From the IMG/VR virus record IMGVR_UViG_2602041669_000002: 5,042 nucleotides of DNA; one strand, written 5' to 3'. The stretch is from a virus. Lineage: Duplodnaviria; Heunggongvirae; Uroviricota; Caudoviricetes. A program made the position numbers and the translations under genes. Shown here piece after piece: positions 840 through 3,213 of this stretch; the stretch's first letter is position 1, and every line of letters begins with the position of its first letter. The notes beneath the pieces are model-generated. The model was given only the letters and a program-made list of their open reading frames with translations, did not search any database and was not told where the DNA came from.

Positions 840-861
840 CTTGCTCTCACAACAGAGCAAG
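840..861. other. Perfect 8-bp stem / 6-nt loop hairpin overlapping the stop codon of the 131-aa ORF
   Basis: CTTGCTCT (840-847), loop CACAAC (848-853), AGAGCAAG (854-861); the arms are exact reverse complements. No U-tract follows on either strand, so it is not a canonical intrinsic terminator. Confidence 0.3.
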
Positions 862-1242
862 AAGCATGGACACCCCCTCACGATGTGATGATTGGTGAGT
901 GTCGATCCCTGAATGATTGATGTTGTTAAACTCAAACATCTTGCTCCTGGCAATAGCCTCAACGGTATTCCAGAATACTAATAGTTCTGTTTTCTGCTCT
1001 GTTTTATCAGCAACAGGAAGTTTGATATGTTGTTGACATTTATTAATGCAACCATTTTGAATATGTTCCTCGTGCTTTTCATTGTCATAAGCATACAGCC
1101 CGACAAAAACATCTCGCACGTTACGGGAAATATTTTCCAGATTCGTCTTTGGTTCCTTTATTAAATTAAGCACCGATAAATGGGCTTTAAGCGTATCCGC
1201 AGCTATTTTCTGAATATCCGCTGGTAAATCTTTAAATTGCAT
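847..1242 (-). CDS. Hypothetical protein, 131 aa, AT-rich moron-like gene
   Basis: ORF with a strong Shine-Dalgarno (GGAGG, reverse complement of 1250-1254) 7 nt upstream of the ATG at 1240-1242. GC is about 30-37% by hand count of sample stretches, against about 52-55% for exo. No family recognised. Confidence 0.55.
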   Translation of the reverse strand: MQFKDLPADIQKIAADTLKAHLSVLNLIKEPKTNLENISRNVRDVFVGLYAYDNEKHEEHIQNGCINKCQQHIKLPVADKTEQKTELLVFWNTVEAIARSKMFEFNNINHSGIDTHQSSHREGVSMLLALL

Positions 1243-1318
1243 AGTATACCCTCCAAGAACTGTGTATTTTCTCGTGAAATATGAGCGATATGTCGTGACG
1301 TCCCTGTCACAGATTTCA

Positions 1319-2140
1319 TCACACTGAGAACGTGCCGATGAAGGTTAAGATATCTTCTTCTTCGAAACGCTCTTTCAGCAGGTCACGGAACTCTTTGGCA
1401 ATTTCTTCTTCCGCAGCTTCAACACGCACGATACGTAGCACCAGAACAGGCTGTTCGCTTGTCAGAATGCTTAATCGCAGCGTGAATTCCCTGTTGCCCA
1501 GGCCCTCGTATGGGATGCATTCAAAGCGGAAAGTGGCAGGCATGATTTCTTTGCTTTTAGCCTCCACGGACTCCATGACTGAGCGGCTACCGCTGAAGTT
1601 TTGCTCTTCATATTCAGCACTGCGTTTTGCATCGATGGTAAGACGACGGACAGCAGAGATAGCCTGTTTGATATCCAGCACATTACCGTCGCTGTCATAG
1701 GCTGTGAGGAAGTCGGCCCAGTCTTCCAGCCATTCAGCGAGAGATTTCTGGAGTTGTTTTTTGCCGTCAACGTCACGCAATGCGCGATATGGTGATGTGG
1801 CTTTCAGTTCCAGCAGTGCCTTGTTGTCAGCGTGTCCAGGTTGCTCCAGAGTGCCGATATTGAACACAGTGACTGCTTTCATCGTTTCCGCGTTAATGAA
1901 GCAGCGGGAGTGCTCATCGGCATACCCTTTGCTGTATTCAACAAAGTCATCAATACTGGTTGTGGTCATGACTCCACGGAAACGAAAACGTTCTGTCATG
2001 AATCGTTCCAGACTTTCGATATTTACATTGTCCGGCAATAACGCAACAGGGCATTCCGTAAGCGGCAAATTTTCACCAGAAAAAGCAGTAGTGGTGAGTT
2101 TTACAATTTCTTTAATGGCATTGCTATCTAACTGAGACAT
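1319..2140 (-). CDS. Hypothetical prophage protein, 273 aa (possibly DUF2303/YfdQ-like; unverified recollection)
   Basis: Long ORF at about 50-53% GC, same strand and order as the neighbours, AGG-type RBS about 11 nt upstream of the ATG at 2138-2140. Acidic C-terminal region (EAAEEEIAKEFRDLLKERFEEED). Several antisense ORFs overlap it and are treated as shadows. The DUF2303 guess rests on length and prophage context only. Confidence 0.7.
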   Translation of the reverse strand: MSQLDSNAIKEIVKLTTTAFSGENLPLTECPVALLPDNVNIESLERFMTERFRFRGVMTTTSIDDFVEYSKGYADEHSRCFINAETMKAVTVFNIGTLEQPGHADNKALLELKATSPYRALRDVDGKKQLQKSLAEWLEDWADFLTAYDSDGNVLDIKQAISAVRRLTIDAKRSAEYEEQNFSGSRSVMESVEAKSKEIMPATFRFECIPYEGLGNREFTLRLSILTSEQPVLVLRIVRVEAAEEEIAKEFRDLLKERFEEEDILTFIGTFSV

Positions 2141-2203
2141 GTATATTTACCTTTAATTTATGTATTTAGGGATAATGCGCGAGCGTTTTAAGGCGGGGAA
2201 TAT

Positions 2204-2551
2204 TCAGCGTAAAACAGCGTCATGTTGGCCCTGTTTATCAAAAAGCTGTCCCTGGTCTTTCTGGAACAAAGTAAGCTCACCACCTTTATTTACAAACATC
2301 GGGGTGTTAGTTGTGTCTTCTTCTGATTTACTACCACGCATTGTCGGGCGTGTGAATTTTAGTTTATGGGAAACTGATACGCGATTTTCATCAAGTGAAG
2401 ATAATTCGAATTCAACACATACCTTTCCTTTTTTGTTTGTGCTGTTTACGCCAAAGGCAACTTCACTTAATACCGCGCCAAGTTTGTTAACAAATACCCC
2501 GCCGTCGAGGTCGTTAATGAAAACATTAACATCAGTTTGATGCTGGTTCAT
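2204..2551 (-). CDS. Hypothetical protein, 115 aa, AT-rich
   Basis: ORF with a GGAG RBS 8 nt upstream of the ATG at 2549-2551, stop TGA at 2204-2206. GC is about 35-40% by hand count. No recognisable motif. Confidence 0.6.
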   Translation of the reverse strand: MNQHQTDVNVFINDLDGGVFVNKLGAVLSEVAFGVNSTNKKGKVCVEFELSSLDENRVSVSHKLKFTRPTMRGSKSEEDTTNTPMFVNKGGELTLFQKDQGQLFDKQGQHDAVLR

Positions 2552-2579
2552 ATTAATATCTCCGTGTAGAGGTGTGTTA

Positions 2580-2620
2580 AGGCTTCAGTTGTTCACTGCA
2601 TTTAAAGCCTGGTTTTGTTT
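2580..2620 (+). terminator. Candidate plus-strand hairpin followed by a T-rich tract (GGTTTTGTTT) in the 195-aa/115-aa intergenic gap
   Basis: AGGCTT (2580-2585) pairs with AAGCCT (2605-2610); inner CAGT (2586-2589) pairs with ACTG (2595-2598); loop TGTTC; 6-nt bulge CATTTA; then GGTTTTGTTT at 2611-2620. It would act on transcripts antisense to the operon. On the minus strand no U-tract follows. Confidence 0.2.
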
Positions 2621-2625
2621 GTGAA

Positions 2626-3213
2626 TTAAAAACTATCGCTGCCGTACTGCCAGTAACCTGGGTCGTCCGTGTGATTCGGGTTTACGTTTTTGCTGCGATT
2701 GTCTTTGTCTTTGAGAGTGGAAACCATATTTGCTACCGTTTCTGGTTTCTTTCCTTCAGCTTTTTCTTTCAGTGTCTGCCCTGTTTCTGCAATGAATGGA
2801 ATGCGGATTTCCATCTGGTAACCGTCTGCGCCAGTCTTTCTGTTTGTGGTTAATACTTTCTGGAGGACGAGTCCGATTTTCTTTCCGTGAAACTCAGGTG
2901 CAACATATTTACTGACGGAAACCATATGTTGCGTTAACTGCCCAATTCCTGTGCATCCCATCATGGCGTGAATAATGCTCGCCCCAAATTTATTTTCAGT
3001 ACCGTCATTCTTCTGAACACAAACACTGAGATATTGGATTTTCCGTCCGTCGTCGGATTCTCCAGAAAACTCAATGAATCGGGCACCTTTTTCTGATTGC
3101 TTGAGTTCTGCTTCGGTGATGTTAATGATATGCGCACCCGTTTCGGTAATAAAACTACCTTGTCCGGCGGTCAGTGCTGATTCTTCGTTATAAGTAAAAA
3201 TCACTTCATCCAT
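2626..3213 (-). CDS. Hypothetical protein, 195 aa, translationally coupled to exo
   Basis: Its ATG (reverse complement of 3211-3213) shares one base with the exo stop TAA (3213-3215), a TAATG overlap. A GGGGGG stretch lies about 10 nt upstream. GC is about 42%. The C-terminus ...NHTDDPGYWQYGSDSF ends in Phe with nearby acidic residues. No family recognised. Confidence 0.7.
   Translation of the reverse strand: MDEVIFTYNEESALTAGQGSFITETGAHIINITEAELKQSEKGARFIEFSGESDDGRKIQYLSVCVQKNDGTENKFGASIIHAMMGCTGIGQLTQHMVSVSKYVAPEFHGKKIGLVLQKVLTTNRKTGADGYQMEIRIPFIAETGQTLKEKAEGKKPETVANMVSTLKDKDNRSKNVNPNHTDDPGYWQYGSDSF

Follow-up and report, generated by a model that had tools for sequence, protein, structure and literature searches.

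In the 5,042-base stretch analysed here (the window), taken from the Caudoviricetes record IMGVR_UViG_2602041669_000002, four open reading frames (ORFs) encoding proteins of 195, 115, 273 and 131 amino acids (ORF195, ORF115, ORF273 and ORF131) lie between the phage exonuclease gene exo and an ea22-like gene. An earlier note on this DNA had read them as a single accessory cassette of four uncharacterised genes. Our analyses make it likely that three unrelated units, and not a four-gene cassette, occupy the slot. ORF195 is predicted to be a single-stranded DNA (ssDNA)-binding protein (SSB) of the adjoining recombination module, ORF115 and ORF273 correspond to the widespread gene pair yfdP-yfdQ, and ORF131 appears to be a mosaic orphan. 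All three units would be transcribed from the early-left promoter.

Distribution of the four genes

We surveyed 80 viral loci with a YfdQ homologue for co-occurrence of the other genes. The gene yfdP is directly upstream of yfdQ, on the same strand, in 79 of the 80, and the sole exception is cut by a contig end. The SSB gene (SSB-2) together with exo and recT accompanies yfdQ in five loci and ORF131 does so in four, all of them near-identical relatives of the window. When 80 viral loci encoding close relatives of ORF195 were taken as the starting point, 58 had the SSB gene without yfdP-yfdQ. Of 5,426 complete E. coli genomes, 126 have the four-gene block, and sampled matches of block length are 97-100% identical. 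Another ~130 E. coli genomes share part of the block, in those sampled 530 nt of the SSB gene with ~85% identity. Thus, the joint occurrence of the four genes reflects descent within one lineage of near-identical Stx phages, and the single cassette of the earlier note is not seen as a unit elsewhere. Only ORF131 is lineage-specific among the four, whereas YfdP-YfdQ is broadly conserved.

Because each of the four ORFs matches a PHROG family strongly (E = 1e-44 to 1e-113) and all are annotated as coding sequences in RefSeq genomes, we judge them to be real genes. They have the same orientation as exo (3902..3213) and follow it at short intervals, as had been noted. ORF195 overlaps exo by 1 nt, the two genes sharing the final base of the exo stop in the sequence TAATG. 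The gaps that follow are 74 nt (ORF195-ORF115), 63 nt (ORF115-ORF273) and 76 nt (ORF273-ORF131), and 150 nt separate ORF131 from the ea22 fragment (696..283). A Shine-Dalgarno-like sequence is ahead of ORF115, ORF273 and ORF131, a G-run precedes the start of ORF195, and no intrinsic terminator on the minus strand was convincing in the gaps between the ORFs. On the plus strand, opposite yfdQ and yfdP, are long ORFs of 143, 126 and 122 amino acids, which were taken as shadows of the conserved minus-strand genes. An Rfam search of the window returned nothing.

Based on tblastn against λ 27.5-33.5 kb (27,500-33,500), none of the four ORFs has similarity to this region (all E > 0.1) and none can be counted by similarity with the small λ genes orf60a, orf63 and orf61 of the exo-xis region. 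The statement that the exo-to-ea22 slot is filled with unrelated genes is therefore upheld. The further statement that no motif could be assigned does not hold for three of the proteins: ORF273 is a DUF2303/YfdQ protein, ORF115 a YfdP and ORF195 an SSB of the type found in phage HK620, each by the matches given below. Searches of Pfam, NCBIfam and PADLOC found nothing for ORF195, ORF115 or ORF131; matches to ChlamPMP_M (E = 4e-4) and Prion/Rha were dismissed as below curated cut-offs.

YfdP and YfdQ form a conserved pair

ORF273 matches the Pfam family PF10065 (DUF2303) with E = 1.6e-65, residues 27-271 aligning to positions 24-269 of the 269-position profile, and on this alignment it is a full-length, single-domain DUF2303/YfdQ protein. 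It is 52% identical to YfdQ of E. coli K-12 and 100% identical to YfdQ of phage ArgO145, in which the yfdP/yfdQ cluster has been noted, both genes being without known function (PMC12315714). The PDB entry 9o7m, 'YfdQ Protein', matches ORF273 with E = 4e-44, and with E = 9e-85 in a profile search. This homologue aligns over the full length of YfdQ; it is a distant one, as its sequence is almost that of Xanthomonas phage CP2 ORF37 and the nearly identical CP2 copy is 36% identical to ORF273 by tblastn. The entry holds 36 chains of one YfdQ sequence, and YfdQ is probably oligomeric. ORF115 is 57% identical to K-12 YfdP (E = 1e-48) and matches PHROG 204 (E = 1e-44). A database protein identical to it carries the precomputed Pfam family PF27127 (PF27127.1), and the motif SEEDTTxTPM(Y/F)VNxGG is kept in the YfdP alignment.

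The pair is almost invariably adjacent in phages of Gammaproteobacteria. Where both genes were present in the 80-locus survey, the spacer between them was 31-64 nt in 78 of 79 loci. A YfdP hidden Markov model recognised the ORF directly upstream of DUF2303 in four distant annotated phages, Vibrio VvAW1 and 36E38.1, Xanthomonas CP2 and Pseudomonas LPPA56 (E = 1e-29 to 1e-49), with spacers of 45-59 nt. Across phages of Escherichia, Vibrio, Xanthomonas and Pseudomonas the two proteins retain 36-60% identity. In VvAW1, 36E38.1 and CP2 the pair has DNA-transaction genes nearby, among them canonical PF00436 SSBs, a YqaJ-domain protein, Erf and exonucleases annotated as DEDD/DnaQ-type; LPPA56 contributes just a weak match to YfbR (E = 1.8e-4), two genes downstream. 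The YfdQ family comprises 1,763 clusters at 50% identity, of which the 150 best-scoring ones listed are single-domain proteins, mostly of 264-302 amino acids. A plasmid leading-region origin of YfdQ was considered and rejected. Just 24 plasmid records carry YfdQ, most of them large or non-mobilizable, and the family is therefore essentially phage-borne.

In the K-12 prophage CPS-53 the genes are adjacent in the same order, yfdP, a spacer of ~60 nt and yfdQ, as here. The locus differs in that yfdR, yfdS and yfdT are absent from the window, where ORF131 follows yfdQ, and in that the pair here stands directly after a complete recombination module. Most enterobacterial prophages have the order cI, (small ORFs), yfdP, yfdQ, yfdR. 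The gene yfdR follows yfdQ in 66 of the 80 viral loci, a frequent association and not a defining one. It does not follow yfdQ here, and ORF131 has no BLAST similarity to YfdR, YfdS or YfdT.

The yfdP-yfdQ spacer was also examined as a candidate regulatory RNA, which was rejected for the enterobacterial copies, where no stable fold is predicted (z about -1 to +1.6). The Vibrio spacers contain a GC-rich hairpin, of -13.9 kcal/mol (z = -1.9) in VvAW1 (4944-5000) and of -15.2 kcal/mol (z = -3.3) in 36E38.1 (4924-4982), which may be an attenuator setting the ratio of YfdP to YfdQ. Two genes upstream of yfdP, 36E38.1 encodes a 577-amino-acid protein, p0025 (2165-3898), with a YqaJ domain in its first ~150 residues only; the remaining ~430 residues could be a fused annealase or other partner.

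Some database records of the pair are irregular. The record of phage P13374 splits yfdP (8732-9078) into two short ORFs, ORF18 and ORF19, and has one base less than the window over this region (2600 versus 2601 nt, 99.9%); this points to a frameshift or sequencing error in that record. Phage phi191 likewise gives two-piece matches for SSB and YfdQ. Two database proteins probably reflect frameshifts or errors of gene calling and not true fusions: one of 166 amino acids matches both PF27127 and PF10065, and in one of 398 amino acids YfdQ is joined to an Ea22 domain.

ORF195 and the recombination module

ORF195 matches phrog_743, 'single strand DNA binding protein', with E = 8e-69 and shares 86% identity over its residues 1-189 with HK629_038, whose record notes similarity to HK620p11. 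The NDYPPF terminus and computed mass of HK629_038 (21.3 kDa) are the values published for SSB_HK620 (HkaK), a protein with ssDNA-binding activity in vitro, which needs its last six residues to stimulate the cognate annealase, Sak4 (PMC5928155). In a 2025 survey of lambdoid recombination modules, the protein of phage TL-2011c was named 'SSB-2' and counted in the Rec module (PMC12315714). The homology and the naming together argue that ORF195 extends the RecT-Exo module and does not begin an accessory slot. We assign it as an HK620-type SSB of a RecT-Exo-SSB module, with ssDNA binding predicted by homology. An hmmscan search of ORF195 against Pfam-A gave no family at E <= 0.1, DUF669 included. 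Since the published link of HkaK to DUF669 came from HHsearch (Hutinet et al., PMC5928155), we read the missing match as a matter of sensitivity and not as exclusion.

ORF195 and SSB_HK620 are both of 195 amino acids, both are encoded in a phage recombination module, and in both the tail ends in Phe after acidic residues. They differ in their setting, with RecT and Exo as the partner here and Sak4 in HK620, and with yfdP downstream here and abc2 there. They differ also in the tail itself. ORF195 ends in ...DDPGYWQYGSDSF, retaining the terminal Phe, and five of its last six residues (YGSDSF) are unlike those of NDYPPF. To place this difference, the 80 loci encoding close relatives of ORF195 were sorted by C-terminal tail. 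The form Y-G-[SG]-D-[SN]-F was present in 22 of 22 loci with exo and RecT upstream and yfdP downstream, and N-[DN]-Y-P-[PA]-F in 58 of 58 with Sak4 upstream and abc2 downstream. Between ORF195 and HK629_038 the tail keeps one identical residue of six, the body 163 of 189 (Fisher p = 4e-4). The divergence is thus concentrated in the tail. The correlation between tail and partner amounts to effectively one evolutionary event, because only two clades are involved.

From these alignments, an HK620-type SSB may have been re-targeted from Sak4, which is RecA-like, to RecT/Exo by exchange of the six-residue tail alone. ORF195 would coat the ssDNA made by Exo and hand it to RecT through the YGSDSF tail, which would take the place of the Sak4-associated NDYPPF and would probably dock on the Bet-like C-terminal domain of RecT, or on Exo. 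This domain is the C-terminal third of RecT, in which residues 173-295 share 41.5% identity with the C-terminal part of λ Bet (E = 8e-22); the protein is a mosaic of a RecT core and a Bet-type partner-interaction domain.

The operon was described earlier as λ-like. This is correct as regards an Exo 87.6% identical to that of λ and an ea22 gene downstream, to which we add gamL upstream and the Bet-like C-terminus of RecT. It is not correct as regards the annealing protein, whose core is RecT-family and not Bet. Compared with the λ order gam-bet-exo-orf60a-orf63-orf61-ea22, an SSB gene has been added here and orf60a, orf63 and orf61 are replaced by yfdP, yfdQ and ORF131. The description of all four genes as uncharacterised also stands in part: YfdP, YfdQ and ORF131 are without known biochemical function, whereas ORF195 is of a characterised SSB type. 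The earlier note had named, as evidence that would speak against its reading, confident matches of all four proteins to known housekeeping phage proteins. Such a match was found for ORF195, which belongs to a characterised housekeeping recombination type, and not for the other three.

ORF131 is a probable mosaic orphan

ORF131 matches phrog_1363 with E = 5e-66. Its homologues fall into 19 clusters, all from E. coli, and occur in 74 phage records, all of Escherichia or Shigella; among them, N- and C-terminal modules are swapped. Judged from these alignments, ORF131 is an orphan gene of Stx-type phages of E. coli and Shigella that evolves fast, has a mosaic build and is truncated by a premature stop. 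In most relatives its position is taken by yfdR, the gene of an HD-domain 5'-deoxynucleotidase, and this orphan at the yfdR position would be the third unit. Read-through of its TGA stop (849..847) yields EQGECPQPTSNDTEQ. Longer homologues, with Arg at the stop position, have this sequence as their C-terminal tail and end in ...LLALLREQGECPQ(P/S)T(S/L)NDTEQ. Because the 15 downstream codons still encode this conserved tail, the truncation looks recent, or the tail dispensable. A candidate Zn-binding motif (H57/H60/C65/C69/H72) was rejected, as these residues vary among homologues.

Functional leads for YfdP and YfdQ

The predicted structure of YfdP (pLDDT 87) is one long helix packed on a three-stranded sheet. 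That of YfdQ is of moderate confidence (pLDDT 77, pTM 0.64) and has a conserved low-confidence loop at residues 172-193. A fold search of both models against the PDB gave no meaningful relative. In profile searches of the PDB, the YfdQ alignment found 9o7m only and the YfdP alignment nothing. In 76 diverse YfdQ members the near-invariant polar residues are E45, R55, T60, Y69, H103, Q131, E139, D140, R165 and R222. Our literature search found no functional study of YfdQ/DUF2303 beyond PMC4776307 and one unreviewed preprint, and no paper describing 9O7M.

As the second unit, YfdP, with its helix and β-sheet, and the acidic YfdQ would act jointly in DNA replication or recombination. That the two act together on phage or host DNA replication/recombination, and are not strain-specific cargo, is a reasonable possibility to which we give somewhat less than even weight. 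The one lead from experiment comes from the genetics of K-12, in which yfdQ, along with yfdR and yfdS or yfdT, is needed for the multicopy inhibition of DnaA-dependent initiation. More tentatively, YfdP and YfdQ might make up a so far undescribed machine of two proteins, widely conserved in the early regions of phages, with the tail-swapped SSB as a secondary point. It is equally speculative that an acidic, high-order YfdQ assembly and its small partner would work on ssDNA or SSB-coated intermediates, or on the host replication-initiation apparatus.

One alternative, which we regard as unlikely, is that YfdP-YfdQ is a module for shutting off host replication and helps to block DnaA-dependent initiation at oriC. 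In K-12, multicopy yfdQ and yfdR with yfdS or yfdT suppress over-initiation by inhibiting DnaA-dependent initiation, yfdQ being part of the minimal set, and extracts with YfdQRST inhibit oriC replication in vitro (PMC4776307). The frequent position of yfdR after yfdQ agrees with this, and in the unreviewed preprint overproduced YfdQ triggers plaque formation by another phage, which would fit replication stress. However, DnaA is bound by YfdR, YfdQ is without strong affinity for DnaA or YfdR, and deletion of yfdQRST has no initiation phenotype (PMC4776307). The K-12 effect is seen in multicopy only, and this phage has no yfdR match.

Slightly less likely still is that YfdQ hydrolyses nucleotides or nucleic acid as a metal-dependent enzyme, with YfdP as its regulatory subunit, and that it feeds or cooperates with YfdR and DEDD exonucleases in turnover of the nucleotide pool or of host DNA. 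His103, Glu139, Asp140 and the three arginines among the near-invariant residues would suit such an enzyme, as would the yfdR linkage, the YfbR-like match in LPPA56 and the DEDD/DnaQ-type exonucleases common among the neighbours. Against it, Pfam, fold and PDB profile searches detected no known hydrolase or nuclease fold or motif in YfdQ, and yfdPQ is kept intact here, where yfdR is absent.

The exo-xis region of lambdoid phages is an established site of accessory genes. Least probable of all is that the four genes are variable cargo of this region and together form one cassette serving anti-defence or superinfection exclusion: the location, the three proteins without known biochemical function and the acidity of YfdQ (pI 4.76), which lacks fold relatives as some DNA-mimic inhibitors do, are outweighed by the absence of the block as a unit outside one lineage (5 and 4 of 80 loci, versus 79 of 80 for yfdP-yfdQ alone), by an SSB gene that overlaps the exo stop codon, by the premature stop in ORF131, and by a breadth of YfdP-YfdQ (1,763 clusters, four host genera, inside DNA-metabolism modules) that is atypical of arms-race cargo. 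PADLOC, which omits anti-defence genes, gave no significant match for the four ORFs and one below threshold, to ORF273 (E = 0.023). The analysis yielded no evidence that the four genes share a function or have anti-defence activity.

Source of the window and its flanking insertions

Two faecal isolates of E. coli from Adelaide, 95NR1 and 95JB1, carry the whole window unchanged in their chromosome. Positions 286-4760 are 100% identical to many further genomes, O104:H4 outbreak strains among them. The segment 700-3300 is 100% identical in the Stx2a phages TL-2011c, P13803 and phiON-2011, and 99.9% identical in P13374. In the RefSeq annotation of 95NR1 the window is part of the early-left operon of a lambdoid prophage, which a tRNA-Arg gene adjoins. 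The minus-strand order is cI, a BsuBI/PstI-type restriction-modification system, Rha, ORF6N, kil, gamL, recT and exo, then three 'hypothetical' genes interleaved with a 'YfdQ family protein', then ea22 and on to int. The restriction-modification genes, a BsuBI/PstI-family restriction endonuclease and an Eco57I-type methylase, lie between the Rha-like regulator and cI, in P13374 too. The features of the window are collected in Table 1.

Table 1 Features of the 5,042-base window, listed by position
Feature	Positions	Strand	Details
IS1203 copy 1, right end, in ea22	1..285	plus	3' end of transposase ORF at 37..243; rve_3/rve_2 match
Ead/Ea22-like gene, N-terminal fragment cut by IS1203	286..696	minus	Pfam Ead_Ea22, E = 3.5e-16
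In-frame codons past the ORF131 stop	799..846	minus	15 codons and a stop, encoding EQGECPQPTSNDTEQ
ORF131, probable mosaic orphan	847..1242	minus	131 aa
ORF273, YfdQ-family protein (DUF2303)	1319..2140	minus	273 aa, pI 4.76
yfdP-yfdQ spacer with yfdQ ribosome-binding site	2141..2203	minus	63 nt, unstructured
ORF115, YfdP-family protein	2204..2551	minus	115 aa
ORF195, predicted HK620-type phage SSB (SSB-2/HkaK family), last gene of the RecT-Exo-SSB module	2626..3213	minus	195 aa
Codons of the SSB C-terminal tail YGSDSF, predicted partner-docking tail	2629..2646	minus	
λ-type exonuclease (YqaJ domain)	3213..3902	minus	Pfam YqaJ, E = 2.5e-28; 87.6% identity to λ Exo
RecT-family annealing protein without native N-terminus	3899..4757	minus	Pfam RecT, E = 1.9e-24
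IS1203 copy 2, end, in recT	4758..5042	minus	inverted relative to copy 1

Both ends of the window are formed by the insertion sequence IS1203. Positions 1-285 and 4758-5042 are a perfect inverted repeat of 285 nt; in 95NR1 both copies are full length (1,310 bp) and annotated as IS3-like IS1203 transposase. Each is bordered by a target duplication of 3 bp, CTC at 286-288 for copy 1 and AAC at 4755-4757 for copy 2. The ea22 fragment is labelled 'missing C-terminus' in RefSeq, the rest of the gene lying beyond the insertion. In recT, a 32-codon N-terminal fragment is left beyond the insertion and the 311-amino-acid recT ORF of the window begins inside it; the complete form, present in P13374 and in one further locus, has 339 amino acids. 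An inversion between the two copies was excluded by the separate 3-bp duplications and by a gene order collinear with that of P13374. Thus, we conclude that two simple, independent insertions took place. The inverted pair brackets a 4.47-kb recT'-exo-ssb-yfdP-yfdQ-ORF131-ea22' segment, a potential composite element or inversion substrate. The insertion in recT is upstream of all four genes in the early-left (pL) transcript and may be polar. Because it cuts recT, the recombination module is probably crippled in this strain.

Implications

The sequence is already public as part of the O104:H4 Stx2a phage and has been treated in recent literature. As a lead for discovery the cassette idea dissolves. 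The region is identical to that of this heavily sequenced outbreak phage, and family names already exist for its parts. The interest that remains lies first in YfdP-YfdQ. This family is large (about 1,800 clusters at 50% identity) and phage-specific, and although one structure has been solved, we could find no published function. The exchange of SSB tails, NDYPPF with Sak4 and YGSDSF with RecT/Exo, is a natural experiment on the matching of SSBs to annealases, and such matching is relevant to the portability of recombineering systems between hosts. If the tentative reading of YfdP-YfdQ as a two-protein machine is true, the pair would be a fifth functional class of the 'DNA transaction' genes of lambdoid early-left operons.

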